From: Psammoneis japonica
Taxonomy: Eukaryota
Length of the DNA stretch: 64,000 bases
NCBI GenBank assembly: GCA_008632985.1
Contig: QPGO01000062.1
Span: 62,001-126,000, forward strand
Direction of reading: 5' to 3'
The notes below the pieces were generated by a model. That model saw nothing but the letters and a program-made list of their open reading frames with translations, was not told the origin of the DNA and ran no database searches. Position numbers and translations under genes: made by a program. Numbering within the stretch: the first letter of the stretch is position 1; each line of letters begins with the position of its first letter. Of the stretch, positions 506 to 22,053 are shown in pieces.

Positions 506-1930
506 CTTGAACTTGTTGCCTTCTGTGGTGTGTGTGCACAATGCACTGTGCTCGAAGAACGAGTGTAAACGAAAGTGTGACGAAGTTCAAAAGGTGAAAA
601 TTATGAGAATCATTTCTGCGCAATCATTTTGGGTTTCTCCGAACGGGTTCTCAACAGCCTAAACCTTTTGCACTGCTCCTACAGACAAAAGGCCTTTCGG
701 AGAATGTGATCGTGACGACAGATTGTCCGGATACGATTGACATTGACACGTAAGATGTCAACATCATCGCACGATCGCATTTGCGATTCTCGACTTCCAA
801 TCACTTCTGTGTGACTGATCTGTACTTCGTACGAACCCACGATTGACGTACGATTGAAATGTGCTTTTATTTGACACATGGATGTACATGTGCAACACAC
901 ACATGACAACGCATGTTGCAAGAGCACGACTCTGAATGATGTTTGGATGCCCGTGGAATCTCCATTTAATTAGAGCAAAGCTCTGAATGAACAATGGACA
1001 TCCAACTAGAGCAAAGCTCTGAATGAACAACGGACGACGACAGCCTCTCCATTCAAACAGATCACAACTATGAACAAATTTGCTGATGCTCTGAACAACT
1101 GTCATTTACGAAGCTGTGCTTCGATTGACTCTGTCAACAAACACATCCGCCGAACCCTGACTGTGCCGGTGAAATCAATCCCAAGCAATTGCACATCATG
1201 TTGCGTCGTGCGCATGTGTTGCGTTGCCTCATTGTTTGTTGTTGTTGTTTCGGGTTGTCCTTCGGCGCCGTTTGTTAGATGCAGCTGACATGGTCTTTTG
1301 ACAACACTGCACACACAATGCAAACCTGCAATTGCAAGAACCATTCAATGCATTCATGCAAACCCAAACTGCCTTTCTTTGTCCAACCTTGCAACTGCTT
1401 GATCCAAAAACAACATCACACTTTTCGCCACAGCATTTTGCAGGGAACAGTGGGTTGGTTTTGAAGCACGCTTGAGCAAAATATTTTCCGTCATCTTGAT
1501 GGACCAAGGCATGGAACAAGTGAGCCTCCTCGCACTTGCACTGCAAACACAAACAAACAAACACAATTGGTTTGTGTGCGGGAACAAGACAACACAACAA
1601 CAGGCATGCCAAATCAACAATGACGTTTGCTCTGCACCTGCGAATTGCAAGCAGTTGTTTGATCCACTTGAGCCACAACGAGTGTTGCAGTTTTGTGTGT
1701 GCGTTTGTCATTTGCTGTCTTTGTCTTTGTTGCAAACAAACAACAAAGTGAGAGGTGATGTTTCCAAGATGCTGCGCACAATCCGCACGACTTCATCATG
1801 CATTCTCACCGCTTTGTTTTGCAATGGATTTGACAATGGTTTAGAGTGGTTGGCTGGTTGAGTCTGCAAAAGAAATGCCATCATGACACACATTGAATGC
1901 CGTTAGATCAACTTCTCAATGGCAATCCGG

Positions 1931-2460
1931 AGCACCAACAATGCTCTCACCTTTTCATTTGCGCCATTTGCCATCGTCTCTTCGACCTTTCTCATTGCAA
2001 ACAACAACGGCTGTGTGAGACGTGTCTGATGAATTGCACAATTGGCTGCAAGACAATGTGATCTCACCGTCTTCTGTGGTGCTCTCTCTGGCATTTCAGC
2101 AACTGGGGATGGTTGAGTCTGGCATCCAGCAATGACGCCCCAAAGTGGTTGGAGCAATTGTTTCATTTGCAACTGGAGCACCGACATTGCTCTCACCTTT
2201 TCATCATTGCCACTGTCAACCACCTCATTTGCCTGGTCACAAAGAACAGCAGGAGCAGTGTGATTGGTCAATCCAATCCATGTGTCACGCTCTGCCTCAG
2301 AACTCTGTTCACTCACTTGTTTTTTTTGTGCTGCTCCAGTGTTTCAACTGTCTGGGATGGTTTGGTGTGGCATCCAGCAACCCAATGAGGCCAAAGAGCT
2401 GTTGGAGCAACAGTCCAAATTGACAGCTGGAGCACCGACAATGCTCTCACCTTTTCTTTT
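1931..2460. repeat. Degenerate ~250-bp tandem repeat, three partial copies
   Basis: The motif agcacc(a/g)aca(a/t)tgctctcaccttttc recurs at 1931, 2177 and 2431. It translates on the minus strand as EKVRA(L/M)xVL. Confidence 0.7.
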
Positions 2461-3223
2461 GCACCAGTTGGCTCGTCCATCTCATCAACCTTTTGCATGA
2501 AGAACAGTGGTGTGAGCGACGTGCAATTCAGCCGCATGACACAATGCATTTTTCTTGCCGCTGGAGCGTTCCCGGGCTCTTGTTCCATCCTGCAACAAGG
2601 GGACCCAGACAACTGTGTCTGACAAGCCAAACAAGGCATCAAAGCGGAAGTTGGTTAGAGCCATCCAACACCACAGCAATTGGACCACCAAATCATGTGG
2701 TCACCTGTGACACCATTTCTGCCAACTCTTCGTCATTGGAACTCCAACCATCGATGACATCCAAATCCATGGTGAGGGGTTCTAGTTCATCATTGCACTC
2801 CCGACGAGGAATTTGCTCTGCCTCCTTCTCCTTCTTGGTTAACTTCCGCTTTGCCGTTGGTTCGGATGGGCAATTTAGCGCGGTGTCCATGGTCAGTGTT
2901 GACACCTGAGTTTTGGACTCATGTTGCGGATCAAGCACAATCTCTTCGTTGACCATTTGGGATGAACTGGTGACTGTCATGCTGCCATGAATCGACTGGA
3001 GCAAATCTTCCTTGGACAGCGGAACTCCCATTTGTTCTGACAACATGCTTGCTGTTTTCGCAAGGTCCACAAGGGATGCAATGTCAATGTCTTTGCTGGA
3101 TGCTCCCTGAGCAACTTGTTTTGATGCTTCGGTGTTCTCCTCCTGCTGTCAAGGACCGGAAATGGGAACGAAGTCGTCAACCAAACAAGATTGTCAACAA
3201 AAGGACAAACAAACAATGTGCGA

Positions 3224-3817
3224 CTAACTCACAGCCACTGGTTTCATCGACATGACGTAAAACTTTGCTTTGGTTGTTGTTTCCGCATTGGTTGCAGCGG
3301 GGACGGCCACATGTGTTTTACCTCCATTCTCCTTGTTGCTCTTGTGCATTGCAGTTGCCACACACCAGCCTGCTTTCCGCAGCACAAACTCCACAAACGT
3401 TTTAATTGTTTGACATTTGGCTTGGCGTGCCACCACAGCAAACCCGCCTCTGTCATCGCGGTGCATTTTGCGAGGTTTGCTGGAAGCGTCCGTGGTGTGC
3501 GGCATGAGCTTCATGTTGTTTGCGGTGAACCATTTGTCAATGGCAGCAGCCAGCCATCCTCTGTTGCGATGAAAGGCGTGGAAAACTTGACACACAAGCT
3601 GCTGATTCTCGGTTGTGTTGTCCATGCTTGCCAGAATGTTTTTGAAGTCTTCTGTTGTGACGGGATTGGTGTTTGTTGATGGCATTGCCACTTCCTTGTC
3701 CATTGCATTTTTCCGACAGCCCTCCAGGCATTGAGTCATGACGTGTTGTCGAAGGGACGACCGGATTTGTGCCAACTCTTGTGGCATCTTCTTGCCATTG
3801 GGCGGCACCATCTCCAC
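3224..3817 (-). pseudogene. Uncharacterised transposon-cargo ORF, TpA-mutated
   Basis: 197-aa ORF with protein-like composition (QELAQIRSSLRQHV...) inside the TpA-depleted domain; no family recognised. Confidence 0.3.
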
Positions 3818-4864
3818 CTCACCAAGTTGTGGACGTGCCTTTCAGCATGACCACAAAAGAGCAGCATCCTCTGGTCTTGTGGGGTCAGCCCCTGTCGTCG
3901 GATGGAAAAAGTCTCTTGGACAATCCAATGGACGATTGGGTGCTGTCATTTTTTCCCCTGGATTTGTCGTGGAAGCTTCCCACTGCATGTCAGATCACAA
4001 TGTTGGCTTCCAAACGCACACTTCGATTTCAAATGCACCCACCTGTGTTCCCCGCTGTTGCAACATCTGTCCTTGACTGGGTTGCGTTTCCCTCTGTTGA
4101 AGTGTTTGCCCTCGATGTGTTTGTAAGATCAAGGCTGACGACCGACACCTGTGTCTGATGAAATGAATTCGTCATTGTGTTTTCGACTTCCAATCGCTTT
4201 TTATGCTTGTGGATGGTCCGGGACGAGCCGAATCTGTTCGACACAATTGCAAAGTCACGGTTGCATGTTCTCATTGCACGGTTTTTGAATTGTGTTCAGT
4301 TTTGTTCTTTTCTGCATTTTTCATTGTTTCAATCAAGCATTGTTGTTCTGAAATGAACATTGACAACCATGTCGACCTGTTGTGTTAAGAAGATTGTTCT
4401 TTCCTCCCATTTGAAACAAAATTTTCCTTAAACAAAAATTGGGTTCTCATTGGCTCACTTTTGAATGTATGATTTTCCACAATTGAAGTTTGATTTTTCA
4501 TGTGTGTTCTTTTTTAAAGTGCTCGCTTCATCTACGTTGTTGAATGAAATGCATTGTGCAATCACACGATTGGGTGGGAGTGCATGCGCGCGCGTGCTGC
4601 TCTTTCAGCGTGTGGAACATGTGTGGGGCCCCACGTGCAGGGCTTGTCTGCAAATGCGCAGTGCAGCAGAATGCACGTGTTTTGCGCTTTTGGTGATTGA
4701 GAGCACATGCGTTGCTCCACCTCATTTTCACAAATCCTCTGCGCTGTGCAAGCCCATCAACAGAACTGCGATCCCTCCCCTCTTTTCCATCCAATCATCT
4801 TTTGGGACTCTTCTTGAATCTTGCATCTTGCTCTTTTGCGCATTGAACAATCCCAAACGATGCC

Positions 4865-6396
4865 ATGGACGACATGGCAAACAATTGGGGGTGCAATTTG
4901 GTTGCCGTCAGCCCGCGTGGCTTAAAACGCAATGGCGAAGATTTGATGAATTCTTCCATGGACATCGGCCACCACAAGCAGTTAGAAGAAGTTGTTTTTC
5001 ATCACTTTGATGGTGAATTGCTGCTGTACAAAGTGATGCCAAACGGCTCCGATGCAAATTTGTTTGCAATTAATTCTGTGACGGGAGGGCACAACGACGG
5101 ATGTTTGATTGCATGTGGAAGTCATGTGGCCGGTGATCATGGGCCTGTCCACTGTTGGACTGCCAGCACGTTCAGCGCAGAACATGGTCCGAGCGCGGCA
5201 ATGCATCCGGACGATGTGTTTAACTCTTTTACACGCAATCACACCATTGCGCTGCCGCATCATGTGCCAGGCACTCTGAGCTCCGTGGAGCTCAGTGAGT
5301 GCGAAAACGATTGTCTCAACCACACTCATCTCCGTTGTTTGATGCAGGCTGTAAAGAAGGTGCCAATCACTGCATTGTTTTTAGAATTGATGCTGGCAAA
5401 CAATGGCGCAACACTCAGCGACATTTTTCTAGAATCTCTCGGTCGGTTGGCTCACCACCATTCCTTTGAGATTGTTGTTGACGAAATTGTGACAGGCGGA
5501 CGCAGTGGATGCATGCCATCATGCCTGGCTAAACCCAAGCATTTTGTTGATGCTGTTGCCTGTGTTGCCATGGGCAAATGGCTGCAAGCTGGCACAGTTT
5601 TAGCAAAACCCGATCATTGCAATCAGTTTTGCAGCATGACATCATCTCTTCCCAATCGTGGCACCTCCACGGGCATGGATTGTAAACAAATCATCATGAC
5701 ATGGAAGACTGCAACTTCACAGTTTTATCTCACAGCCGAGCGTCGACAAACTGTCCTAAAGAAACTCAAAGTGACAGAGCAAGATGCGTGGGGCAGCGGC
5801 TTGCTTGTGTTTGCTCCTGTGAAACGAAGTGATCTGACGCCAGCGACCAAGAATCGTTTCCTTCCTTTGCTTTGCGCCACCCCATTGGACAACATGAAAG
5901 TCCAAAAGCACGATCAGTGGACGAAGCCTCTTGTGAGCCAACGCATTGTTGATGGATGCCGCTGTTGGTTAAATGCACACCCGCACACGGACGAGGAAAT
6001 GAGCGGCGCACACAAATTGCTCAGTCATTTTGCGGATCAACCCGCGGGCACGTGTTTTCAAACTAAGGGGCTCATGATGAATGTCCTTGGTGGGAAGCCT
6101 TGCACACCACGCAAACGTGCCAACTGTTGCGTGCTGCAGAAAAGGCCGGGCTTGTTGGCAAAACATTGGTGACTCGCAAATGCCTGCATGCCTGGAAATC
6201 GTTGGCCCCGACAACCATGCCAAGCAAGAAGAATCAACCCATGATTGCATTGTCTTGCCGCTTGCGTTTGCGCAACCTTGTTTGGACAGCCTTCGGCATT
6301 TCGAAAAAAACTGCTTCCTCCACTGCTGATTTTGGATCTTCTGCCAGTGCATCTGTTTCAAATGTGTCATTCCCTGAACACCAATTCAACCACTGA
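4865..6396 (+). pseudogene. Class-III PLP-dependent aminotransferase-like gene, hypermutated, with a frameshift near the 3' end
   Basis: ALFLELML...FLESLGRLAHHHSFEIVVDEIVTGGRSG...AMGKWL matches the class-III signature (xEP...FL..LR.L...h.i.lI.DEVxTGfGRtG...tlGK, PLP lysine). The tail appears to continue in ORF 6100-6396. Confidence 0.6.
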
Positions 6397-9300
6397 ATGT
6401 CTTTTGCCGGAAGAGCGAATTCATGATTGGAGTCGAAGATCCAACCACCATGCAAAGCAGTGCAGTGATTGTTTGTCAACCGACAAAGAACGATGTCATC
6501 GGCAACGTGGGTGGTCAAATCGAAGAATCCCCTCTTGCCAGCTGCCATTTTCTGACGCTTCTTGCATGCGTGCCACTTCATTGATGTAGCCAGTGGAGGA
6601 CAAAGCTTCTGCTTTTGTCCCAACAACATGCCAATGGCGAACTCCAACCGTTTGTTGTTGGTGTTCTCTGATCTGCAAGAATGATCCATGTAATTCACAA
6701 TGTGTCGCTCCATCCTTTCATCTCTTACATTTGGGACACTGGCCAGGCTCGAAAACACGCACGTGTCTTTCTCCCCTTGTTGATGTTTGACTGGGGGTCC
6801 CGAGCTGGGAAATTCCAGCCCACTTTTATCTGACACGTGACCCTCCGGCAGTCTGTGCCATTTCTTCCCTGGTTCCCAATCACACATGGCCTTGTACACT
6901 GTGGGACATCGCTGCTGAAAATTGGCTCTTGCCCACTCCATGGTGCAACAGCGCGGTTTCTTCCTTGTGCCAACCCCCACGAATGCTGGCGTTCCCTCCG
7001 GACCTTCAAAATCATCATCGGCTGCAAGCCCCTCCTTCATTGGCTCCTTTGCTGTCAGCCATCTCACTTTGTGAACCTGACCATTGTTTGTCACGTGATC
7101 AGCTCTTTTGCCAATTTGCCTCTTTTGTCTGGCATTGAAAATCACTCTTGTGTCAGGTTTCTTTTTAGCTTCCTCAATTGCGGCTCGAACAAGGTTCATC
7201 GGCCCTCCTCCAATGTCCTTGTCATTCGTCGCTCCAAAACAGTCTTCAGCAAATGTTCTGCCATGCTTGAAATCTTCGAACCATCCACAAAAAACTGGTC
7301 CTTCACAATCAACAGCATCACCTGGCACCTCACTTTCATCCGGCCGTGTGGCCCGATCGACCCACTCAAAACCATGCAGCCGTTCCAATTCTTTGGCATC
7401 CTCATGGCACATCCTCGCCTCATGACGTAGATCTTGACATTTCTTGTCCCTGGCAGACAACACTTTTCTTCGTGACACAAGGAGACCTTGATCTTCTGGT
7501 TCCGATTCGGACTCCTCTTCCTCTGGGTCACCATCTCCCTCTTGTGGTTTCGGTTCCTTCTTTTCTCTCTTGTTTCCCCTGGCAGAGAATTTTTTGTCAA
7601 GCATCACCTCCTTCGCCAGCTCTGTAAAACGATGTTGTCGGAACAACCGATTGATCTGGCACCAATGCAGTTGTTCCGCTTCTTTGCACCAAATTGCAAT
7701 GTGTCGCAAAGGTGGCAGAAAGAAATCCTTTTTGTTCAACCGCACTTGGCGTTTCTCTGGGTCCTTCAGAGTTTCTCTGTCTTCTTGTGCAGCACCAGCC
7801 AGCAGTTCGTACACTGCACTTTTGCTTTGTGCAGTGCAAATGGGGCACTTGCCCGGAACACACATTGCATGATCACAGCAAGGTCCCGCAAGCACTGAAA
7901 ACAAAGTTGCTGCTGGTGACAGTCCACCTTGATCTTCCTGGTTGTAATCGATGGGAAACACCATGTTGCACGTGTTGCACTTCATGTGGATGCTTTCAAG
8001 AAGTTGACACGTGGCTCCATCATCACCCAAAGGCATTTCCATTTCCATGTCTTCATCTGAATCGCTCCGACTCTGTTGGCAGTGCTTGGGGTTGAGAACA
8101 TGCTTCCGGTTGTCAGTTCCCAACTCCGCAGTTGCGTTGAACTTGCCCCTCACACATTTCGCTCTTTGAGCCAGCTCGGAAGTCCTCGATCGAAACGCCG
8201 CTCTTTTCCATGTTTCATCATTTGCTAATTCGCTCATTTGGCAGGAGAAATTGACGCTTGCGGCAAACAAAGCTGTTGTCTCGAAATGTGACTTAACTTG
8301 GTTGGCGTCACTTGCACCCACGCAACATTCGTAGGATTCGTAAATGCACTTTCCAATGTCAAACCATTGGCGTCCATCCATGTGTTTTTGCCAGGAATCT
8401 TTAAAAGAATCCAGCGTCGCATTGCCAACCATCACCACTGACGATTTGTAGATGAGGTCTTTCTCTTGATCCACCAAATCTTGGCATTGATCGGCGGGTC
8501 TCTTCTTGCTGCTCCAGAACCCAACACAATCTCGCCAATGTTTTGCATTGCATTGGAAATCATCCTCTGTGTGAGAGATGGGCAACGCAATTTTTGCACA
8601 ACGTGTGGTGACTCTGCGTTTCACCATCAGTGCCCCAGTGTCATCTCCGTCCTCTTTGATCAAAGCATTCCAACTCCAATGGTGTCTTGCTCTTTCCCAA
8701 GAGGGCTCCTCATTCATTTCCTCTGTGATGTCCTCGAAACCCAAACTTTCACAGCAGCATTGTTTGAGCTTGACTTGACAATGCAGCATTGTGTCCCAAG
8801 TGCCAACAACCGTGCAGCCGACAGATTGAGCCAGGCTAATCAGGAAGGGGCACAACCCATGGTTGTGTGCTTTGGCTCCTCTGTCGACTCGAACACAGTC
8901 AACAATTGTCACTGGCACCAATTCAATGCACCGATGCAACAATGCAGCGACAATGTCAGTTGCCAGTTTGCCACTTTCTTGATTTTTTGGCATTGCACAA
9001 ATTCCCAAAATGTGAGTGTGTTTGTTGTTCAACAAGTCAACAATGTTGCCTTCGTTTTCTTGATTAAATTCACGAAGAAGAAAATCCTTTACAGCTGCCC
9101 TTGCTTTTTTACTTGCTTCTTTGCCGAAGTCGGATGACAACCCCTTCTGGTTGTGATGCAACAAAATGCACTTCTTCCCGCGATCATTCGGCCCGCGTCC
9201 AGAATTTGCCAGTGTTGTCAGTGATTTTGGTTCTGTGCTTGGGTTGACCATGGTAAACAAGGGACAAGTGCGGTGGACATTGCCCCGCACACGCTTTGAC

Positions 9301-9629
9301 ATGTCATGTTTGATTGCATTCACGAAACGCCGGAGCTTGGTGGGAATGTGTTGAATGTCCCCCTCCTTGGATTTTGATGATTTTGGTGAAGAACCCGCAT
9401 CTTTCTTCTCCTGAGAAGCATCATTGTCTATTTCCTTAGAATTCACAGCTTCCTTGTCCTCCTCTGACGTCCGCATTTCCTCCGGCATTTCCTCCTCCTC
9501 TTCTTCCACATCTTCTTCCTGGGAATTGTGGTTGTTCTCCTCCTGTGACAACCGGATTTCCTCATTCTCTTCTCGGGAAGCCACAACAGCCGCTTTGGCA
9601 AGAGCTTTCATTCCATTGTCCCTTGACAT
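6234..9629 (-). CDS. 1131-aa multidomain cargo protein: acidic N-terminus, GNAT-like domain, C-terminal papain-like Cys-His-Asp domain (Tyr-depleted, probably inactivated)
   Basis: GNAT-like segment TIVDCVRV...HNHGLCPFLISLAQ...MLHC...CCCESLGFE (with C/H restored to Y: DYVRV...YNYGL...YYYESLGF). C-terminal QQGEKDTCVFSSLAS...NHCTALHGGWIFDSN fits the QxxxxxC/H/D layout. Confidence 0.5.
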   Translation of the reverse strand: MSRDNGMKALAKAAVVASREENEEIRLSQEENNHNSQEEDVEEEEEEMPEEMRTSEEDKEAVNSKEIDNDASQEKKDAGSSPKSSKSKEGDIQHIPTKLRRFVNAIKHDMSKRVRGNVHRTCPLFTMVNPSTEPKSLTTLANSGRGPNDRGKKCILLHHNQKGLSSDFGKEASKKARAAVKDFLLREFNQENEGNIVDLLNNKHTHILGICAMPKNQESGKLATDIVAALLHRCIELVPVTIVDCVRVDRGAKAHNHGLCPFLISLAQSVGCTVVGTWDTMLHCQVKLKQCCCESLGFEDITEEMNEEPSWERARHHWSWNALIKEDGDDTGALMVKRRVTTRCAKIALPISHTEDDFQCNAKHWRDCVGFWSSKKRPADQCQDLVDQEKDLIYKSSVVMVGNATLDSFKDSWQKHMDGRQWFDIGKCIYESYECCVGASDANQVKSHFETTALFAASVNFSCQMSELANDETWKRAAFRSRTSELAQRAKCVRGKFNATAELGTDNRKHVLNPKHCQQSRSDSDEDMEMEMPLGDDGATCQLLESIHMKCNTCNMVFPIDYNQEDQGGLSPAATLFSVLAGPCCDHAMCVPGKCPICTAQSKSAVYELLAGAAQEDRETLKDPEKRQVRLNKKDFFLPPLRHIAIWCKEAEQLHWCQINRLFRQHRFTELAKEVMLDKKFSARGNKREKKEPKPQEGDGDPEEEESESEPEDQGLLVSRRKVLSARDKKCQDLRHEARMCHEDAKELERLHGFEWVDRATRPDESEVPGDAVDCEGPVFCGWFEDFKHGRTFAEDCFGATNDKDIGGGPMNLVRAAIEEAKKKPDTRVIFNARQKRQIGKRADHVTNNGQVHKVRWLTAKEPMKEGLAADDDFEGPEGTPAFVGVGTRKKPRCCTMEWARANFQQRCPTVYKAMCDWEPGKKWHRLPEGHVSDKSGLEFPSSGPPVKHQQGEKDTCVFSSLASVPNVRDERMERHIVNYMDHSCRSENTNNKRLEFAIGMLLGQKQKLCPPLATSMKWHACKKRQKMAAGKRGFFDLTTHVADDIVLCRLTNNHCTALHGGWIFDSNHEFALPAKDIQWLNWCSGNDTFETDALAEDPKSAVEEAVFFEMPKAVQTRLRKRKRQDNAIMG

Positions 9630-9672
9630 CGCAGGCGAATCCTTGCTTCCCTTTGCTGCTGCCTTGTTTGCG

Positions 9673-10901
9673 TCAAACTGTACAACACAACGAGGGTGCC
9701 CCAGCCAGTTCTCCAGGTCTTGTCATTGAAAACCCAATTGGCGGACTGTCGGTGGGCGACAGACGCGGAAATGCAGGGAAGAGACACAACAGACGATGAT
9801 GACCCACCGACAACAGTGGCCTTGGAACATGTGTGTTCTTGACAACGTCAAGGAAAAAGGAGCTTACGCCGTCTGCCAACACAACCCAGATCAGCCGGTC
9901 CCCTTTTCTTCAAACTGTGCAACACAACGAGGGTGCCCCAGCCAGTTCTCCAGGTCTTGTCATTGAAAACCGATTGGCGGAGTGTCACTGGGCAACGGAC
10001 TGGCAGCCCCACTCGTCCGTTGCTGTGCAATTGTCAGCAGTTGACGCGGAGACACAGGGAAGAGACACAACAGACGGAGACGACCCACCGACAACAGTGG
10101 CCTTGGAACACACATGTTCTTGACAATGTCAAGGAAAAAGGAGCTCACCCCGTCTGCCAACACAACCCAGATCAGCCGGTCCCCTTTTCTTCAAACTGTG
10201 CAACACAACGAGGGTGCCCCAGCCAGTTCTCCAGGTCTCATCATTGAAAACCGATTGGCGGAATGTCACTGGGCGACGGACTGGCAGTCCCACTCGTCCG
10301 TTGCTGTGCAATTGTCAGCAGTTGACGCGGAGACACAGGGAAGAGACACAACAGACGGAGACGACCCACCGACAACAGTGGCCTTGGAACATGTGTGTTC
10401 TTGACAATGTCAAGGAAAAAGGAGCTTGCGCTGTCCACCAACACAACCCAGATCAGCCGGTCCCCTTTTCTTCAAACTGTGCAACACAACGAGGGTGCCC
10501 CAGCCAGTTCTCCAGGTCTTGTTGTTGAAAACCGATTAGCGGAACATCACTGGGCGACGGACTGGCAGTCCCACTCGTCCGTTGCTGTGCAATTGTCAGC
10601 AGTTGACGCGGAGATGCAGGGAAGAGATGTGACAGACGGAGACGACCCACCGACAACAGTGGCCTTGGAATGCACATGTTCTTGACAATGTCAAGGAAAA
10701 AAAGCTTGCGCCGTCTGCCAACACAACCCAGATCAGCCGGTCCCCTTTTCTTCAAACTGTGCAACACAACGAGGGTGCCCCAGCCAGTTCTCCAGGTCTC
10801 ATCATTGAAAACTGATTGGCAGAACATCGCTGGGCAACGGACTGGCAGTCCCACTCGTCCGTTGCTGTGCAATTGTCAGCAGTTGACGCGGAGATGCAGG
10901 G
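9673..10901. repeat. 281-bp tandem repeat, ~4.4 copies (first copy has an internal deletion)
   Basis: tcaaactgt(a/g)caacacaacgagggtgcccc at ~9673, 9910, 10191, 10472, 10752; ggaa....gttc at 9824, 10105, 10386, 10667. Confidence 0.95.
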
Positions 10902-12225
10902 AAGTTGCTGACTTTGTCTGCAACCAATTTCGTGGCAGTGCCTGATGATGATTGTAAAGAGTCAACAAAGCACAGCGTGCACACCAAATTGTCTGAGATG
11001 TGAGATAAAGAAACAATGTGCAGACTGCGCCGTGAGCTCAGTGTTGTTCTCACAGCAGCGATGAAGTTTCGGTTCTGGTGGTGTCTCGCAATGAACCTTC
11101 ACCAAAGGTCACAATGTTGTCAACACTTGTTGGCAAGTTGACAAGAATGACAACATGCAATGGAAGGATGAATGACAACAGCATTGCATGAACAGCAAAG
11201 TTTGATGACAACAGCGGTGTCAGCGGCGGTGTCATGGATGCATGCTTTTCCGACATTTGTGTTGTTGTGACATGCGGCAAATGCAGTGATGTCACAGAAA
11301 AGAGGGGACTTGTTTTCTTGTTAAATTCTATGATGAATGCAGAATTTTTGTGGTGTTCTGTTTGTGGCGCTGCAGGCGGCCACAACCAGTTGGCCACGTG
11401 AGGGGATGACATGCAAAATTCCGGATTCCGGTGTTCTGACTCACCCAACATACATCATCTCTCAATCACGACCAGACAAAGGCGACATCATCATCGCACA
11501 ATCACATTCTCGCACAAATGACAAAGGAGTTGTGAAGCTGTTCTGCTCTCATTGTTTTTCATTGCAGCATCTGCTCACTCAAATTCCAACCATCCATGCA
11601 CCATGGAAAAGGCAAATGTGACGCTCCCGCTTGGAGCAGATCCGGCGCTCCCAAGGGAAGAAGGACAAGGAGTGCGCGTCCATCAAGAGATCCGCCGGGT
11701 TGCTTGATTCCTCAAAGATCCGAGTCGCCTGTTCAAAGTTCCACAGGTCAGTTGTGGTGAAATCGAAACGACGGATCCAGGGAACGCAGACTGTCTAAAT
11801 GGCGATGCAGGTCGAGGTCGAATTCCCACCAACGACGAAGGTGTCAATCGCCGTCCCGGTCTTGGTCAAGTTCTCGGTCTCGCTCTTTGTCAAGTTCTCG
11901 GTCTCGATCGCGTCATCGGACCAGACATCGTTGTCGTTCTGGAACTTCTTCGCGTGGTTCTCCTTGTCGATCAAGGTCTCATCATTCTGGGTCTAGGTCT
12001 CATTCTCGTCGAAGGCATCGGCGACGGTGTCGGTCACCATCCATGGGTCACCACAACTCAAGTTCCCGGTGCAGTTGCAGGGAACGTTGTGGTGCTGTTC
12101 CCCACTCTCCATGTGGGGATCACCAAGGTCGATCGCAATCGCGGCAGAGGTCACGCCAAAGGTCTCCATCCAGTTCACCGCAATGGTCTCGTCGAAGGTC
12201 TCTGGATTCTTCCAACAAAAGGTCT

Positions 12226-12616
12226 AGACGCGTTCCAGGTCTAGGTGGGACCTCGCACTGCTGAACTGTGACATCGACAGTTTTTTGAATCTCGTCGTAT
12301 GTCGCGCACGTAGAATTCTACGTGATTTTTTGATATTTTGTGTCATTTTACGGTGCACTTATTGAGCGATCCGTCCAACAACTTTTGACATTTTTTGTTA
12401 CAGCGCGATTCTATAATGTCTTAAGAATCGCGTAGGGCAGGTGCATTTGCAAAAATGTCGAGTGGCAAGAGGCACAATTGTGCCACAAACTTGGCCGTTT
12501 ATTTGATGTTGAAGACAATTACATCCATTGATTAAATTCTCGTACTACGGAGCTCGCACGTAGAATTCTACGGGCCCAATGTCACACGGAGTCCCACCCA
12601 GGGCTGGAACGCGTCT
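12226..12616. promoter_or_regulatory. Symmetric AT-rich, TpA-retaining island between divergent ORFs (putative bidirectional promoter)
   Basis: CGCACGTAGAATTCTACG occurs at 12305 and 12555, and 12307-12324 is a perfect 18-bp palindrome. Inverted 26-bp arms at 12226-12251 and 12591-12616 differ at 3 positions. Confidence 0.5.
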
Positions 12617-12621
12617 CTAGA

Positions 12622-15558
12622 TTGTCACCTCGGCGTAGACACAGGTCACCGCACAGGTCACCATCCAGGTGCAGGTCACCCTCCAGGTCAAAAAACAGGT
12701 CTCCAACAATGTTGAGGTCACCATCCAGGTGTCGGGGTCGATCGCGTGTTCGCAAACCCAGGCATTCGTTGCACTCGCACAGGTTGGGTACATCGAGGAA
12801 ATCTGAGAGTCGCGGTTGGGACAAAAGCCATCCTCCCGCACGTTCTGCAGATGACAGCATCCGCTCAAGGAGTTCAAGCAGAACAAGTCAACCTGCCAAC
12901 AGCGGCATGGTCCCATTTTGTCAAATGCGACTCCGCAGAAACAGAAGTGGCAGTCCAATCTCACACCGCACAAGATCTGCCACATCCAGGTCACGCAGCC
13001 TGGAATCTCCCCTGGGACGGTCTCCACCTCCTCGCAAGCGAAGACCAGCAGACCGGTTGCTTTGCTTGCTGAGTGTGCAGCACATGCGGGAAGAAGCAAA
13101 AGGCTGTGAGGACTCGGCTTCTGTGCATCACGTCGAGGAACAATCAACAAACAGTGATGTCATTGATTCTGTTTTCTCAAGTCAGAGCGACCAATCATCA
13201 TCGCATTGGCATGATGGCGCAGTTGTGTCAGCACTTCCCATTGATTTCTCTGATTCTGATTTGCCCAATGGAAGCAGAGACGAATCATCTGATTGCCATT
13301 CAAGCGCTTTTGAGGCAGCACTGCCCTTGCAGATGCAGCGTCCAACTTTCACTGGCAACTGCAAGACTCGGCGGGAGAAAACAGTGTTGCCCCGTTCCCT
13401 GCCACAAGAAGAGAGCTTGCGTGCCAAAAACATGTTCAATGTTGTTTTTGTGTTTGAGGAGATGAACAGTGCTTGCTTCCGCCACAATTCTGGAAAAGCC
13501 AAAGCACTTGACAATTTGGGGAAACTGTCTGGAGAACACAGGCAAAAGCATGCCACCCATCTGCATGTTGTCTTCCAGTTGAAACTGCAGGTGTGCTTGG
13601 CAAGCAGAGCAGACATCCCCCACTGCCAAGTGCCAATTCCGGATTTGGCGTTGGCACTTGGACAGGATGAAACTGACATCAAATGGTCCTTGTATGATGT
13701 TGATTCCGACCATTGCAATGACTTCATGTTGGTGCTCAACCACTTTCCAAACAAACACCCAATCTGCCACATTGACTGGGGCCGATCGCACGTGCTGATT
13801 GACAAATGCCATGAACGTGAGTCGAAAAGCAACCAGGGAAAGAAAACAAGGAAAGGCAATGTTGGCAAGAAAACTGGCAAGAGAAAACGTTTTCAGAAAA
13901 AGAAAAGCAACAAGCCCAAGAAAACTGGGACCCATTGTCAACCAAAGGACCACTTTGCAGATTTCGGCGTTTGCACCAACACAAGCACTGCAAGGGAAGG
14001 CCATGCTGATGGTGTTGCACGGCCTCGAGTTGGGAAAGGGACTGAGGAAGCAATGCCTTTTTTTGAGTCTGCCTCAGCAAACAATGTCGTGGAGGCACTG
14101 CATCTGGCGAACACCAAATTTGGCAAAATTACGGATTGCCACTCGGATGAATGCAACGGCCAAAACAAAGACATGACCCCAGTTTTGTCTGTTTCAAAAA
14201 TCACAAATGATGGAGAAACAAGAGATGCTGTCATTGCTTGCACCCGCAGTTCTGTAGAAACTGCGGAGAAGAGGATTTGACTTGCCTTGCCCATCACAAC
14301 ACGAGCCATTCGCACCTGCCAAAACTTGCCCGTGCACCGGCAACGACTGGAGCCGGCAATTGTCTGTGATCACTTGACAGGATTTAAGGGATGCAAAGGA
14401 ATCGATGCATTAAAAGGCGACTGCAACATGGAACCAACGTCATGCCACCAGCTCTTTCTACACTTCATTGTCGCAATGATTGACAAATTCTCACTTACGT
14501 TGCCGCAGATTGTCGCTGTTCAGACTTGCTTCGAGGTGCACCCGGCGCAGTCATGTCACTTTGGAGCAGTTGCGTTGGTTCTTTTATCCGTTGATGCCTT
14601 CCAGCCACCAAGCGACCCCTGCGGATTGGGGTGTCTCATTTAAGAAATGATGGTCCACATAAAAGAGGCACATTCTAGAGGCATCCCTCTGCGATGTGCG
14701 TCACACAGCAAGAGACCACCCTTGCCAACCAAGGCTGAATGGAAAAAACGGAATGATAAAAAGGGAAAGTGGATTTGTGACATTTGGAATGAGCATGCAA
14801 ACAAGCCACAAAACAAAGACATCGTCTCTATTTACAAGAAACTGATGAATCAGTTGTCTGAATTCTCCCCGCAATGCGACGTCTTGCACCTCAATCATTC
14901 GATTGCGATCATGGCAGAAATTGGCCAGCTTCCTGTTTGGATGCTGCATCATTGCCACTGCAAAAAGGATTCCCTCCCTGACACAAAAATTGCCGAAGAA
15001 TGTGGACTGGGCAAGATGGACGATGCGGACATGTTCCATTTGGCTCAAACCATGCAGGGTGCATTCACCGTGCAGTTGAACAACCCCGGGGGTGATGACA
15101 AGAAAGACACTCACTTCACCATTCGTTTTGTTGAGAACATTCTTTGCAAAATGTTTCGCTTCTGGATCAGCAAAGGGAGGGTAAACTGCTGCGATGTCCA
15201 TTTTGCAGGAATGTCATTTTTTGTTTTCCACGATGAGGCGAATTTTCTTTGTCACTTTGATGGTTCCAGTGACCCCGAAGAGCTGCCTCCCGGTGGATTA
15301 ATCCAAAACTTTTCATGTAAAAGTGAGGAAAAAAAGATGGAGGAGATTGCCAAAGAACTGTGTGAGGACAATGATTGGGCCGGGTCGACCTGGGATCATG
15401 GTCCCATTCAAATTGCATTTGAACTCAATTTCAACAAACTGCTGTCTTATCCACCAGAGGCGATGTTGGACATTTTGGCCAAAAACAAAATGTCAAACGC
15501 AATGAGGGACTGGTCTGTGTGGTTCTACTTCATAAAGAGAAAGAGGAACATGAAATGA
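12622..15558 (+). pseudogene. ~980-codon cargo gene with two in-frame stops: RS-rich N-terminus, HxDxxN...RxxxIx(Y)xR segment, C-terminal ENILCK helical region
   Basis: ORFs 12622-14280, 14287-14643 and 14647-15558 share one frame, separated by single stops (TGA 14278, TAA 14641). Confidence 0.55.
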
Positions 15559-15761
15559 GAGCAGACACCCAGCTCGCATGTCCTTCTCATCCCCCGCAGC
15601 TAGCTGCGTGTCGGCCACAACAGCGCGTCTTTAAACAAAAGAGCATGTGCGCTGCTCCTTCACGGGTCCATCCACCATTGGAGCACGTGCACTGCTCATG
15701 CCATTGTCTCCCCCACACAGGCTGGATTGTCAACCAAGACGGATGACAGAGCAGTTGATGG

Positions 15762-18700
15762 TTAGCCGGCTGTCAACCAATCGTCGAAAACGTCCAAGCT
15801 GAGTTCCGTTTTCACAAAGCATCCATCTCTGGTTCTTTCATTCCACAGATGGCTGACACAATAAAAGCTGTTTAGGAACGTTTCACCATCATCTTCCATC
15901 CTTGGCAATGCCAGCACAAACTGATGTCCCAAGCTGTTGCAAAGATCTGTTGCCGCATCAAATGATTTTCTCCTGTCTGTTGCTTGAACTGGCACCATCC
16001 AACACAAGTCCAAAATTTCTTCACCTTCCTCATCCACAAATTCTAAAGCAACTGCAGTTGCAGAGGAGCGAGTGGCTCCTTTTTCACCCACTGGTCGAAA
16101 CAACAACCACACAGTGCAATCGGATGACACAAGGCCAGCAAAGGGAAGGCATTGCTGTCTTGCCTCCAACAATGTGTTCCAGTTGCTGTAGATTTTGAAG
16201 ATGCCATCTGGACGTCTGTTCTTCGATGAACCTTTCTCACTGTCACGTTCTAAAAGCCAAGAAATGGTTGCCTGTTGGTGAATGTGACGCAAAGCGATTG
16301 TTTGCCAGTCTGCATTGCTGCGTTTGATGCTGACCTCTGGCCTCACAGTTTGCACACCACTTTCTCCAGAATCGTCACCCTCCCAATGCAGAATGGCCGG
16401 TCCATCATGTTGGTGGGATTCCGCGACTCCCAGCATTCCAAGTGAAACAGATTTCACAAAGTTCGCCTTTTTTTCTTTTTCTTCTGAACTTCACCGTCGC
16501 CTTCTACGGCATCGTTGTCTGCCTCATCTGAGGGTGCTTTCATCAACCACATGTCCATCTCGACCATTGCATCCAAATGTGTCAAAACCATTTCGTGAAG
16601 GTCCCCAACAACGCGCTCCGAAGACATGACTCAGCTCAGACAAGCTTGTGTGGCAGAAGCAAATAGAAGCAACATCCGTGACACACCTGCACAATCCGAG
16701 TGATTGTCCATTGCCCGTTGTTGGTGAAGCGCAGGCAGCGCAACCACAAATTTTACTGTCCTTGCCCAAAAGAAGCAATTTTCACTGACCCAGGGACCTG
16801 TGCCCCACTTGCTGGTGGACAGTGGATGAGCCGCAAAACATTTGGTTGATCGGAGGGACTGGATGGACCGCAAGCATTTGTTTGCTTGCTTTCCAAAGGT
16901 TGCCTGAAGTTCAAATCGAGAGAACAATTTGGACATCATTTCGAAATCACTTTTAACACTGCCCAGACCAATGGTGTGCATTGGTGCACAATGACAACGT
17001 GAAAGTGCTTTGGGATTAAGCCAAGGTGCTGGATGTGTTGGGCAAGGCAGGTTGCATTTTGCAGCTGCGCACACTGTGTCGATGTGGCATTGGATGACGG
17101 CACAAGTACGAAGACAGGCCGTGAGGTCAGCTTTGGTCCAAAAGCGCTTGGCACTTGGGGTGCCCGGCGGATGTGTTCTCATGTTGTGATGTGCAAACAC
17201 GATCGCTTGCTGCAACCAGGGAACAGTGAGTTTGATGGAGGCCAGCCATTGTCTTGGGGTGGCCACACGTTGGCGTTTGCGTCTGCGACGAGAAGAATCG
17301 GTCGATGTGGATGGATCTGTGGCCAAGTCTTGAGTGGATTGGATGTCATGTGCCGACGGGTTGAAGACAGTCACTTCCCTGCCAGTGGGAGGTTTCGGTG
17401 CACCTTCGCGTTGGTCACATGAACAGGGGCAGTCAGCCGGAGCCAGAAAACGAAACGCAGTGTCGAACACATTCCAGGATGCACAAGCATTGTGTGGACA
17501 TGTGCTAGAAACAGGAGGAACGTTGATTGCAACTGCGCCATCCACTGGTGCTCCTTCTTCCTGTGAATTGTCGGTGACATCAGAAGGATCCTCGGACGTG
17601 CTAAAATGGTTGCTCACATGTGCTTTGCGACAGAGCTGACAATGAGGCAAGTGTGATTGAAAGAACAGTTTCCATCTACATGGCAGGCATGTTCCCAAAA
17701 CGTTGAACAGCTGCCATTGTGGTCTCCAACACGAAACATGCAGGAACATTCAGGCCGATCCACACAAACACTGAGTTTGCCAGCTTTAACCCGTGTGAGC
17801 TTCTGCAGTCCGCCATGGTAAAACCAATGGCTTTCTTCAGACAACGACTGCAGTTCGCATTCAAACATTGTCTCCACAACTTCATGATTTTCTCCCTTGG
17901 ACGACATTGCCATGAAGCAGGTGTGGCATCCACTGGAAGAATTGGGAGGAGGGCAGCAGGTGTGCGTGTCAAGCCACACTTGATTGTGTGACTTCTTTGT
18001 GCCGTTGGGATCGAAGTCATCACGCCATTCTCGCACCCAAAGATGCAACACAAAACCGTCGACATCTTCTTTAAGTTCCATGAACAAGGAATGCGCCGCC
18101 GGTGTGCGTGAAATGGCAGGTTGCGAATCTTGAACAATGACGTCCGCATCAAAGTGGAACTTGTCAAATTGCGTGGCTTTTGCCAACTCATTTGCAAGCA
18201 CGTCTTTAAAGGAAACATGGGAATGACTGCCATCATCGGTTTTCCTGGGAACAGGATGAGGCAAATTTGGCACAATGGCATGTTTGCTGGACAAATGCAA
18301 CATTTCAAAATCTTTCACAGAAGTGGGGACACGAGTCCGACGAAAAATGGACAAGTCTGGATCACGGCTGTTTGTGGCTTGCAGCATGCATTCTGCCAAC
18401 AATTCACGTTGTTTCTCGGTGAGTTGTGAAAGCAGGCTAGCCATCACAAGTGAAAAATGGGCCTCTTCTTTGGTCACCTCGGTGACGGGCAATTCGAAAG
18501 CGTCAGCTGTCAATTTCTGGATGCCTTGTCCGGGGTGCGAATGCTCGCACCAAAAAAAGGCCGGGCTGTTGGAGTCCGGATCAAAACCTTGTCGGAGATC
18601 ATCAGTGCGCAATGGAGGACGTGAGCCGGCATCATTGACGTCGTAAATCCAATCATCTTGGTTGGAAGGCTCCTTGCTCTCGGAAACAGAGGCGTCATTG

Positions 18701-19275
18701 TCATCGTTGCACCAACATTCGTCGTGTGCAGGCTCCGCCGGCGCACACACGGCATTTGCACTGCTTGTTGGTGCGGCTTTCAAAGCTTCAAAGGATTGCA
18801 CATGAGTTGGAGTTATGGTGTGCTCAACGCAGGTTTTCCAATCTTTAAGAATTGGAAGATGACGACCACCGCTGTTTGTGTTGCTGCTGTTCCAGCAGCA
18901 TTCGCAGACAAAAAAGGAATCAACTGAACACTCCGGGTTGAGACATTTGCCGGAATGGAGGCAATCACCCATGTTTATGATGCTGTTGGAGTTGTCACAT
19001 TGAGTCAATGGAACAGTCAAGAAGCAATGTTTGCAGCATGTGGAGAAGGCTGTGGAGGCCATGACTTGTGCAGACAAAGGTGGAAATGCAAAAATTGTGT
19101 TGTGTGTGCGATGCGCCGACACAGGCGACAATTGACAACAACAGAGCAACAACGATGCTCGTCGACAGATCGCCACAAACAAAAATGACGAGATTATGAG
19201 CATTGACTGGCAACCATGAATGCATGCGTGCACATGCGCCAATGACGCTTTGAATCGTCCATCATTGCGTCTCAT
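15762..19275 (-). mobile_element. Plavaka/CMC(EnSpm)-like DNA transposase, frameshifted and hypermutated
   Basis: Ordered motifs across three ORFs: EWRDDFDPNGTKKSHNQVW...SKGENHEVV...FECELQSL...VCVDRPE (17614-19275); HCAPMHTIGLGSVK and GPWVSENC (16631-17749); DGPAILHWEGDDSGESGVQ (15762-16457). This order matches Plavaka/Tnp2-type RNase-H-fold transposases. Confidence 0.6.
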
Positions 19276-19673
19276 TGTGTGTGTGTGTGTTCATTGTTCG
19301 TTTGCTTTGAAGAAAAACCATTTGCTCTGAGAGTGCAAAAGGTCGCAGGAGGCTGCAGTCATTTGAAGCGAATGCCCTGAATGATTGCACTTAATCGAAG
19401 GCATCCTCTGAATGTGGCTAAACAGGGCAAATGTTGGCATTTTGCTCTGATTGTCTTGTGCACAGAGCATGTCGCTCTGACCATGGCTCAAACAGAGCAA
19501 AGCCACAACCAGTTGTTTGGCACTTGCAATCGGGGCAAAATGCTCTGTTTGTTTTTTATTTAGAGCGAAAACAGCTTGTTCAGAGTGATTCTCATTTGCA
19601 GTGTAATGAGTCGAAAGAAAGAAACAGGGTTCAGGAGGTGGCGGCGGTCGGCGGGGGCGGAAAACAAGACTGA

Positions 19674-21001
19674 GGCACGTTCCCACCCTGATAATTTCGG
19701 CCGTAAAATAAATGTAATTTGGCCAAATTTACGTGTTTACGGGCGTCAGGCTGGGAATGAATTCGATCGGTAAAAAAGATCAAAATCTCATGTCGAGCTC
19801 GGTGAGGACGCTGCACGCCACAGCACTGTTTACACTGCTGCTGCAGCACTGGCTAGAGCTGCTAGCTAGAGAGACACCACAACATTGTCAGCGACAATCG
19901 TTGTCCATTTTGCGATTGCTCTGCGGCAACCCAAGACTCAGGATGACACCAGTGAAGGTCAGAAGAAATACATCCAACATTCAATCCACTGGCAAGAGTT
20001 GCAGAGAGATCAGAAAGACGCACGAAACAATGGCATGCAGTGAGACTACAGCATGTAAAACTGCCAAATGTAATTTCTGCAGAATGTGAGGTGCCAAAAG
20101 GCACCATTGTTGACTCTTGCGGTTTGCCATTGGCCCAAATCCATTTCAAAGAGCAAAGTGACAAAGAGCAAGTCACAGAGAAGGCCTCCAGACAGTAGAG
20201 CAAGGCACTGTGAGGCACAATGCCGATGATGTTGCGCAAAACATTGACCCCCACCAGCATCATTGTCCTAACTTCCGACAAGATTGATGAAATGAGTGCA
20301 CACAGCCTTCTTCACAGTCACATTCTATCACAACAAGCCTTCCTGTTGTTGTTGAAGTGACCAAAATGTTGCATTCTTGACTCTTGACCGTCAATCAAGT
20401 GACCTTGAGCACACACCAAAGAACCACCTCAATGTGACATCAGATCACAATGTGTTGCTACGAGGATTCGGCCTCAAGTCTGTGGACGTGTGGTTTGTGA
20501 AGAATCCCAACGCGAAATCTGAACAAGAGAAACGAAGACATCAAAAACACCATTGGTCGACACGGTCATCACAAGCCATGACAACAACGAAAAATCAAAA
20601 TTGTGACAGCTTGATCGTGTCGAGCGCAGTCTCATTGACCTGTCTCCACAGTCTTGCCTTCGTAGACAGGACGGTCGTTCGTGTGTGAACGGGTCCGTTC
20701 ATGGCAGCAGCCATCATGGTTGTTGTGCGATCGGAGCGGAGAAAGAAAAAAAATGGGCGGCTTGTGTGACGTGGCACGTTCGAGCTCCCAAAACGCCGAA
20801 TTTGCCGTGAAAATTATGTTTGCGGGAGAGAATTTACGACGACCGACACCTGTCGTCGTAATTTGCTGATGATTTCGGCTGTAAATTGGCGGATGGAAAA
20901 CAGACGTGCGATTTTTCTTGTACGAGAGTTTCTACAGGAATTTTGTGTAGAACGAAATTACATTTGTTTTACGGCCGAAATTGTCGGGGTGGGAACGTGC
21001 C
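19674..21001. mobile_element. Non-autonomous TIR element (PIF/Harbinger-like MITE), 1328 bp
   Basis: ~47-bp TIRs GGCACGTTCCCACCCTGATAATTTCGGCCGTAAAATAAATGTAATTT (from 19674) and its reverse complement ending at 21001, with 3 mismatches. A 3-bp TSD TGA lies at 19671-19673 and 21002-21004. Confidence 0.85.
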
Positions 21002-21044
21002 TGAAATCGAAATTTTTGGGGCGATGCCGATGACGGTTAAGGCG

Positions 21045-21840
21045 GGTCATCCCCGCGTTCATCCTAGAAATTATCGTGGCATTTGAACAAGGACATTTGT
21101 GGTGTTTATTTTTGAATGCAAAAATTATTTACATTCACCCCCGATCGCGCACGAAAACGAGAACATCAGGCACCGTGATCGAAGCACGATGATGACGGTG
21201 ATGTCGACATAAGTCCAAAACACAGTGGTCCGTGCGCAAACATTTGATGCATGTGTGACCTTAGATGCACAACAAGCACAAAATAAATGAAAGTTGACGC
21301 ACGGCCCACCTCCGTCACAGACTTGTGGCTTGATGTTTTCACCACGGTGAAGCACGGTGAAATTCAAGAAAAATCATGCAAATCACGAGCTGTTCGGCCA
21401 AATTCGAGCTAAAAAAAGTGGGGGATGACCCACCTTGAGGGGGGTCATCCCCGCGTTTGTCCCAAAATTGCCGTTGCATTTGAGTGAGGTTTTTTACAGT
21501 GTTCATTTTTGAACACAAGAATTGTTCATGGTCACACCCGATCGCGCACGAAAACGAGAACCATCAACACCGCGATCGAAGCACGACGATGATGACAATC
21601 ATCGACATTTCTCAAAAACGCAGTTTGCCGTCTACCAACTTTTCATGCGTGTGCAATCTTTGATGCGTGACAAACACAAAACAAATGAGAGTTGGCAGAC
21701 GGGCCACCTCCATCACAGACTTGTGGCTTGTTGTTTTCACCACGGTGAAGCACGGTGAAATTCAGGAAAAATCATGCAAAACACGAGCCATTCGGCCGAA
21801 TTCGAGCTAAAAAAAGTGGCAACCGACCACCCTCAAGGAC
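21045..21840. repeat. ~398-bp direct repeat, two copies (possible subterminal repeat of the large DNA transposon)
   Basis: ggtcatccccgcgtt at ~21045 and ~21443; ccgatcgcgcacgaaaacgagaac at 21141 and 21538; cacagacttgtggcttg at ~21316 and ~21714. Confidence 0.85.
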
Positions 21841-22053
21841 CCGCGTGCAATCTTCACAATCAAAGACAAACAATTTCAGTCGGCAATCGCTTCGTCGTGT
21901 TGAAGAAACCTGTCCGTTGGCACATCAACTCGTCAACTCGGCACGCTGAGACAGCATTGGACAAGATGCTGGACTTTTGCCGTTGTCTCTGTCCCTCAAA
22001 CTGTTTCCATGTCATGCAAATTGTTTGTCATGACATCGTGAGATTGGCCCACC

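Follow-up and report, generated by a model that had tools for sequence, protein, structure and literature searches.

The stretch of DNA analysed here, hereafter the window, comprises 64,000 nucleotides (nt) from the assembly of Psammoneis japonica (GCA_008632985.1, contig QPGO01000062.1, positions 62,001 to 126,000 of the forward strand), and all coordinates count from its first letter. Its left part holds a multi-exon gene without an assigned family (gene A), a class-III-aminotransferase-like gene, a gene for an 1131-amino-acid (aa) protein with an adjoining tandem array, two further open frames, and a transposase pseudogene. A preliminary description made from the letters of the window had proposed that positions 1100–21850 form a single giant Plavaka/CMC-like transposon of at least 20 kb with enzyme genes as cargo. 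Our analysis points to a related picture with different limits: the block from ~0.9 to 19.6 kb is probably one defective copy of a young, multi-copy, cut-and-paste DNA transposon of ~18.7 kb from the CMCT clade (EnSpm/CACTA-Plavaka-like), with a conserved accessory pair and lineage-specific genes. Genes were read as stop-to-stop frames with their translations, and no Pfam family scored above cutoff in the 11 large open reading frames (ORFs), in 70 further ORFs of at least 75 aa (positions 1–22315), or in 11 of them when rescanned at E ≤ 10; the sole hint was a weak Aminotran_3 match, given below.

The transposase is present as a pseudogene of ~1100 aa on the reverse strand (15762–19062), recognised by the motifs DDFDP, VDRPE, CxxC, HxxxxH and WVSEN. 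A 914-aa homologue, P0011, matched it by tblastn in three pieces lying in three frames (18837–17653, 17659–16505 and 16478–16083), with frameshifts at ~17651–17659 and ~16467–16505 and an in-frame stop at 16628–16630. Other contigs from the same sample have 2 nt fewer at 17651 and one extra T behind 16467, each of which restores the frame, so that by this frame arithmetic there are copies whose frame is open at these positions. With the 558-aa transposase piece, 41 relatives were found at E ≤ 1e-3, some from clusters of up to 204 members, and no Pfam domain was found among the 41. Metagenome contigs were scanned with an alignment of the transposase (A1), and seven loci were confirmed from 90 pattern matches (7/90), one of which, L005, encodes an uninterrupted 1200-aa relative. 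In A1, DDFD is conserved in all 21 covering rows, VD[RH]PE in 18/19 rows and CxxC in 15/17 rows, and HxxxxH and WVSEN are present in the long rows as well as in the window copy. In P0011 the motifs lie at residues 269–272 (DDFD), 355–359 (VDRPE), C395-x2-C398, H580-x4-H585 and E650, in keeping with the CMCT motif order D..D..C(2)C..H(4)H..E; the acidic residues assigned to catalysis among these motifs are predicted ones. The order D..D..C(2)C..H(3–4)H..E is given as common to EnSpm, Plavaka, Transib and RAG1 in a published account (PMC12730594). Judged by these motifs, the protein is placed in the CMCT clade, taken here to comprise EnSpm/CACTA, Mirage, Chapaev, Transib, Plavaka, ESTA as well as Lanisha; the name EnSpm/Plavaka-like is used for it here, without assigning it to Plavaka itself. 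Among the neighbours of P0011 in the ESM Atlas, 17 of the 30 named ones carry the Plavaka family PF18759 (top scores 0.94, 0.92 and 0.92), which in the three best-scoring clusters is found on 34–42% of members; clusters with Transposase_21 (PF02992) appear at rank 9 and below, with scores ≤ 0.90.

The aminotransferase-like gene (4865–6172, forward strand) encodes an intact 435-aa frame, the stop-to-stop frame of 441 aa starting at 4847, and was recognised by its homologues and motifs. Aminotran_3 (PF00202) matched the 441-aa frame with E 0.0016 and 17.6 bits, below the gathering threshold of 30.5, and the best relative of the protein reached 26.8 bits against the same cutoff. The 21 relatives share 29–50% identity with it; 11 of them have a precomputed PF00202 assignment, and one represents a 41-member cluster. 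Class-III aminotransferases are marked by GS.AN, by the Asp of DE..TG.R, and by a Schiff-base Lys ~30 residues later. In a 20-sequence alignment GS.AN, DE..TG.R and the GK that contains the lysine for pyridoxal 5'-phosphate (PLP) were invariant (G67, S68, A70, N71, D212, E213, T216, R219, G243 and K244), and all 14 matches of a profile search against the PDB were class-III aminotransferases, the best being a taurine:2-oxoglutarate aminotransferase (E 1.4e-4). The earlier assignment to this class thus holds, with a weak Pfam match below cutoff, and the 441-aa protein is seen as a divergent PLP enzyme of the class-III fold (PLP fold type I) that is probably active. One relative of 666 aa, P0058, has a weak C-terminal Tudor-like match (PF21743, E 5.6e-4, below cutoff), a hint that part of this family may have a chromatin-reader domain fused to the enzyme.

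Gene A (1900–3988, reverse strand) was recognised by homology to L003, a 12.7-kb locus among the seven (L003:506–1585, reverse strand; 37% identity over 170 aa, pairwise E 5e-32, tblastn E 1e-29). It appears to comprise several exons, with a ~80-nt GT..AG intron at ~3146–3226 and three repeated exon/intron units of ~250 bp at 1918–2470, so that the preliminary description of the genes as apparently intron-less fails for gene A, where introns are predicted from GT..AG borders. A premature TGA is found at 3842–3844, and homology continues through this stop.

The aminotransferase-like gene also has a counterpart in L003 (L003:9785–11251, reverse strand; 38% identity, E 9e-89 pairwise and 8e-82 by tblastn). 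When 17 translations from the window were compared to the seven loci by tblastn, L003 was found to combine a gene A homologue, a transposase and an aminotransferase-like gene, all at ~40% protein identity to the window. The aminotransferase-like gene is convergent to the transposase, as in the window, and in L003 it has the transposase on one side and the terminal repeats on the other; it is therefore inside that element. In L002 and L004 gene A is located ~5 kb upstream of the transposase, but both loci, as ~98% copies from the L003 family, are not independent of it. The transposase, gene A and the aminotransferase-like gene thus make up a module that is conserved across ~40% protein identity.

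The ends of the block were approached through repeated motifs. A left subterminal cluster at 930–1095 contains five copies of CT[CA][CT]GAA, three of them as GCTCTGAATGA; the looser motif has five matches in 801–1200, whereas the window as a whole averages 0.15 per 400 bp. GCTCTGA occurs nine times in the 64-kb window, and six of these sites lie at 980–1088 and 19324–19474. The right subterminal region (19324–19589) carries GCTCTGA and CAGAGC-type motifs in both orientations, with short matches to L003 at 11.3–12.6 kb, where 15 GCTCYGAAT-type repeats are found at 11369–12558; L002 and L004 have none in their left parts. Directly after this region, the window reads ...TCTCATTTGCAGTG at 19590–19603 (inward 5'-CACTGCAAATGAGA), a 14-mer that is identical in 13 of 14 positions to L003 12588–12601 (...TCTCATTTGCGGTG at 12601). 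The L003 14-mer likewise follows subterminal repeats, and the sequences beyond both termini are unlike. Elements of the CMCT clade have 5'-CA..TG-3' termini, with CAC..GTG in EnSpm. As the 14-mer is conserved between elements without other nucleotide similarity, it is taken as a functional CAC...GTG-type terminus, which puts the right end at 19603 with the reading ...GCAGTG (TTTGCAGTG). The preliminary description had suggested a possible terminus at 21847; the letters ...cccgcGTG are indeed found there, without a matching CAC-type left end, and conservation with L003 moves the terminus to 19603, leaving the 398-bp repeats formerly counted as part of the element outside it.

On the left side, a candidate at ~912 had a local alignment score of 23 against a window maximum of 27, which is not significant, and one at ~592–595 is crossed by a contig from another copy (519–705, 81% identity). 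A near-palindrome at 772–788 resembles the L003 terminus in the wrong orientation and lies in the repeat at 2–~900, inverted 12-mers with 2–8-bp duplications gave 207 candidates, which is the chance level, and a (CA)n-based pair at 1310/19283 is a microsatellite coincidence. The earlier statement that no left end was found thus still stands. The left end of the L003-type element was not captured either, the homology break with L002 falling in a (TGG/TGC)n microsatellite. An ankyrin-repeat protein is encoded in L002 (307–1395) immediately to the left of the L003-type element; this gene is probably host DNA, which would place the L003-type left end within ~1400–1990 of L002.

Contigs from the only three sequencing runs found to contain the host genes, all from one sample that is possibly the origin of the window itself, were compared with positions 400–20399 at 80% likeness. 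In run X1, 6032 contigs matched and all 30 bins were covered; 1169 contigs had at least 99% identity, 1764 had 95–99%, 2191 had 90–95% and 908 had less than 90%. Summed contig depth, which does not equal copy number, was 370–1780 in 27 bins and far above that in 400–1066 and 11739–13072. Near-identical contigs of high depth (322–574) were found at four parts of the block, namely 2.6 kb (gene A), 12 kb, 14.6 kb (the 304-aa frame) and 15.9 kb (the transposase), and diverged single contigs had a depth of just ~36–38. Every part of the block is present in many copies of several ages. Differences between the window and other copies comprised 563 transitions and 153 transversions without direction bias (280 C>T plus G>A against 283 T>C plus A>G); since transitions were balanced in both directions, the decay of the copy is not of the kind produced by repeat-induced point mutation, which was rejected as an explanation. 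The GC content of the block (0.46–0.52) is the same as that of its surroundings.

The term "mutated" in the preliminary description fits the window copy well: with two frameshifts and one stop in the transposase, one stop in gene A and an inserted 393-bp miniature inverted-repeat transposable element (MITE), it would be immobile on its own. The MITE (12223–12615) has inverted ends of ~25 nt and is flanked by a TCTA(GA) duplication, and a near-identical contig of depth 323 joins 12222 to 12616, skipping the 393 nt. Its family is hyper-abundant, which accounts for the depth peak of 70–77 thousand (summed) in the two bins at 11739–13072; no other repeat seen in the sample comes near it in abundance. 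It interrupts an open frame at 11761–14280 (forward strand) with an Arg/Ser-rich start, which stays in frame when the 393 nt are removed and whose right part is the 582-aa ORF at 12532–14280 (forward strand). A second open frame of 303 aa follows at 14647–15558 (forward strand; 304 aa stop-to-stop, 14644–15558). Neither frame could be assigned to a family by Pfam, and the 304-aa frame had no usable Atlas match. The "HxD" protein of the preliminary description, checked here as a TET/JBP or other 2-oxoglutarate (2OG) oxygenase, is not borne out by these searches (Pfam at E ≤ 10, and the Atlas for the 304-aa ORF); HxD tripeptides are present in two ORFs and were not counted as evidence.

The largest protein of the block, 1131 aa from its first Met (6234–9629, reverse strand; frame open to 9722, 1162 aa), is for the most part an orphan. 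A near-length word search gave 0 of 4344 candidates, and its N-terminal ~840 aa have no relatives; an exhaustive search with the 1162-aa frame gave 21 matches, all within residues 838–1156. These residues correspond to a papain-like Cys/His domain in the C-terminal ~300 aa (6237–7199, reverse strand), in which the Cys of QGxxxxCxFxSLAS and the His of NHCxT....WIFDSN are invariant and common to 17 relatives. Papain-like peptidases have a catalytic Cys followed by a His (and an Asp or Asn), with a Gln a few residues before the Cys. The domain has a Gln at −6 in most rows, D or N after the His, and the papain-like order of Cys before His; it had no Pfam match and no sequence or profile match in the PDB. 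Of the former reading as a GNAT plus peptidase protein, the peptidase part is reasonable, resting on the invariant Cys/His domain with no named family matched, and the GNAT part is not supported, no profile having matched in Pfam at E ≤ 10.

The size of the block, its many genes and the cysteine-protease-like domain would also suit an integrated virus-like or Polinton/virophage-type element in place of a DDE transposon. The scan of the 11 and 70 ORFs revealed neither a capsid or polymerase family nor one of packaging ATPases or integrases, and viral contigs held no relatives of the transposase (0/71 pattern matches) or of the aminotransferase-like protein (0/55), which makes such an origin extremely improbable.

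Directly upstream of the gene for the 1131-aa protein lies a tandem array of 281-bp units at 9667–10904 (9762–10904 by the tandem-repeat call) with 4.1 copies (four and a partial one), in agreement with the internal tandem arrays reported before. The array also repeats a stretch just 5' of the first Met in the 1162-aa frame. Each unit contains the 15-bp near-palindrome CTTGACAATGTCAAG, which has four sites in the window, all within the array, against 0.37 expected. The palindromes may serve the 1131-aa gene as its own regulatory or binding sites.

Several results weigh against a single large element. The contigs are short, and among those listed none bridged the whole stretch 400–20399. No left terminus was found, the best candidates scoring at chance level, and no target-site duplication of the 2–5 bp typical of the CMCT clade was located (the right flank reads TAA/TA). 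The 1131/1162-aa protein, the 582-aa ORF and the 304-aa ORF had no relative in any of the seven loci; L003 has unrelated frames of 670 and 535 aa instead, and compared with the window its gene A is found at the opposite flank of the transposase, with its orientation reversed. L005 has an unrelated 703-aa ORF downstream of the transposase where L003 has the aminotransferase-like gene, so co-occurrence rests on one independent family of the two with enough flanking DNA (L003 linked, L005 not). For the transposase itself, PF18759 and PF02992 were unmatched by the window pieces (E ≤ 10), by seven homologues (E ≤ 0.1) and by the pieces from L001 and L005–L007 (E ≤ 1), a PDB profile search with the transposase alignment gave a chance match (E 4.8), and the Atlas recognition value of 2216 is below the 2300 mark, which makes the evidence from Plavaka neighbours weak. 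Because the Pfam profiles are unmatched, the name EnSpm/Plavaka-like rests on motifs and language-model neighbours; the original naming of a Plavaka/EnSpm-like transposase is thus in line with the CMCT motifs and the PF18759 neighbours and finds no backing in the Plavaka and Transposase_21 profiles.

These points bear on the main alternative explanation, in which several independent repeats have become nested in the block, with a compact transposase element of ~4–5 kb beside separately amplified gene families (the aminotransferase-like and protease-domain genes among them) that gathered in a repeat-rich region. The surroundings are indeed rich in mobile elements (a copia element at 22051–28745, a terminal-inverted-repeat element at 19674–21001, the MITE at 12223–12615 and the abundant repeat at 400–1066), three ORFs are without relatives near related transposases, and neither a left end, nor a target-site duplication, nor a contig that bridges the genes was seen. 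Other observations speak against a nest: gene A and the aminotransferase-like gene, which are far from the transposase in the block, are the very two that recur in L003 inside terminal repeats, the subterminal motif marks the two edges of the block and is rare elsewhere, and apart from the MITE no inverted or direct repeats that would delimit sub-elements were found within the block. We therefore consider a nest unlikely.

The block could alternatively be a segmentally duplicated piece of host chromosome, that is, a multi-copy host gene cluster containing a dead transposase. The 435-aa and 1131-aa frames are intact while the transposase is broken, and gene A has spliceosomal-type introns like those of host genes, both of which would agree with such an origin. 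The range of contig identities from >99% to <90%, on the other hand, fits repeated waves of transposition and not one duplication, the gene trio recurs at ~40% identity, together with shared terminal sequences, in a metagenome element that is unrelated, and recognisable host genes (EF-G-like, CRM1, FkbM) start only past 29.5 kb. A duplicated host segment is accordingly very unlikely.

The reading as one large transposon with passengers was thus retained. Of the earlier proposal to this effect, the core is supported by the recurrence of the trio in L003, by the subterminal motifs that bracket the block and by the multi-copy state of the stretch; its limits and several of its gene calls had to be changed. 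The co-occurrence in other loci that the preliminary description named as a check was observed for the trio, in one independent family, and not for the genes of the 1131-aa, 582-aa and 304-aa products. In the mechanism we propose from what is typical of the clade, the ~1100-aa DDE transposase would recognise the CAC...GTG-type termini and the GCTCYGAAT motifs just inside them, and would then excise and reinsert the element. The conserved accessory module would consist of gene A and the PLP-dependent class-III-aminotransferase-like enzyme with its cofactor-binding residues kept. By analogy with TnpA of En/Spm, gene A would be the most likely partner to bind the subterminal repeats, and its product may thus be a subterminal-repeat-binding protein. 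The 1131-aa protein with its papain-like domain and the two ORFs without known family would be the lineage-specific part.

The right end of the element is followed, 70 bp beyond it, by a separate non-coding element of 1.33 kb with terminal inverted repeats (19674–21001), which has inverted ends of 47–48 nt (94% match) starting with GGCACG and is flanked by a TGA/TGA duplication; one of its ends was found in a different context on another contig. Two 398-bp repeats with 80% identity and a palindromic junction lie at 21040–21819, followed by the ...GTG at 21847. A copia-type long terminal repeat (LTR) retrotransposon occupies 22051–28745, with LTRs at 22051–22350 and 28446–28745 that are 95% identical and an uninterrupted 1973-aa gag-pol frame with RVT_2; this retrotransposon appears to be young and may be intact. 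To the left of the block, a gag-like 195-aa frame on the reverse strand runs off the start of the window and, with ~300–400 bp after the frame, extends over 2–~900; the bin at 400–1066 has a summed depth of more than 20 000, and the stretch probably represents the 5' portion of a retroelement of very high abundance.

Beyond 29.5 kb the host genes include one for an EF-G-like protein, an intron-split gene for CRM1/exportin-1, two for FkbM-type methyltransferases, an HA-domain gene and a sugar-transporter fragment. The two FkbM-type domains belong to adjacent paralogues of 417 and 422 aa (37093–39814, reverse strand), apparently a tandem duplication. An array of 108-bp (36-aa) repeats at 56416–64000 (reverse strand) runs off the window, with an open frame of more than 2500 aa, a Pfam match to the disordered repeat PT and a GC skew of ~0.3; it is probably part of a gene whose product is a mucin-like protein of the cell surface, giant in size and rich in Pro and Thr. 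Diatom-like features may be seen in the HA domain and in the copia element; nothing among the neighbouring genes looks fungal to us, and these genes do not suggest a red alga either.

The element was compared to known systems of its kind. Maize En/Spm encodes TnpA as a second protein, a role that gene A could parallel here, and plant En/Spm (CACTA) and fungal EnSpm elements resemble the present one in the CAC...GTG-type terminus, seen here at the right end, and in the short repeated subterminal motifs. Plant CACTA elements and Mutator-like elements (MULEs) often carry a cysteine-protease (ULP1) domain, in which the order is His-Asp-Cys, in contrast to the Cys...His order of the protease-like domain found here. 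A further difference to EnSpm/CACTA is that Transposase_21 is unmatched.

Fungal Plavaka A/B and KDZ elements carry TET/JBP dioxygenases that may counter silencing (PMC12730594). They share with the present element the principle of an enzyme-carrying DNA transposon, and the nearest language-model neighbours of the transposase are Plavaka clusters; they differ in that no TET/JBP or 2OG domain was detected here and that PF18759 is unmatched. According to the same source, the termini of PlavakaA are TGT..ACA and those of PlavakaB CATCA..TGATG, and the right end ...CAGTG (TTTGCAGTG) matches neither.

The giant Plavaka elements of the red algae Bostrychia moritziana and Chondrus crispus are closest in layout, with 17–19 kb, three accessory genes (PAG1–3) and tandem arrays (bioRxiv 10.1101/2025.02.11.637652). 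They resemble the present element in size (~18.7 kb here), in combining a transposase of the EnSpm/Plavaka kind of DDE enzymes with several accessory genes, and in a high copy number with mostly degenerate copies. PAG3 has an adjoining inverted-repeat tandem array, and the 281-bp palindrome array beside the 1131-aa gene is analogous in layout. The PAG domains named in the preprint, i.e. an N6-adenine methylase (PF01555), SET (PF00856, PAG2) and a 2OG-oxygenase-like part, were not found in the 11 and 70 ORFs of the window; what is conserved as cargo here is an aminotransferase-like enzyme together with gene A. A limited literature search turned up neither a DNA transposon with an aminotransferase passenger nor a giant CMCT element in diatoms. 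Giant passenger-carrying relatives are thus known, and the passenger set found here is, by this limited search, not described before.

It is tempting to ask what the PLP enzyme does for the element. One suggestion is that it represents a new class of transposon-encoded anti-silencing factor that chemically alters chromatin or DNA and is not chance cargo; we consider this quite unlikely at present. Speaking for it are the retention of the enzyme in two elements at ~40% protein identity, the invariant PLP residues, the 41-member cluster and the weak, below-cutoff Tudor-like tail of P0058. If it were true, possible targets would include the amine or aldehyde groups of histone lysines, polyamines and oxidised bases, and the enzyme would be a functional parallel to TET/JBP of the Plavaka/KDZ elements in fungi and to the PAG genes that Plavaka carries in red algae.

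Giant DNA transposons with enzymes of their own are so far known chiefly from fungi (TET/JBP) and from red algae (PAG). With the element described here, a further eukaryote would join them, as would a transposase family missed by current Pfam profiles. The conserved terminal 14-mer, the subterminal motif, gene A as a candidate motif-binding gene, and the palindrome array beside the gene for the protease-domain protein offer handles for experiments. With a PLP-dependent aminotransferase-like enzyme that has been kept together with its transposase across deep divergence, a type of passenger is added that our literature search did not turn up, and should this enzyme act on chromatin or DNA, it would represent a novel means of host manipulation by a transposon.

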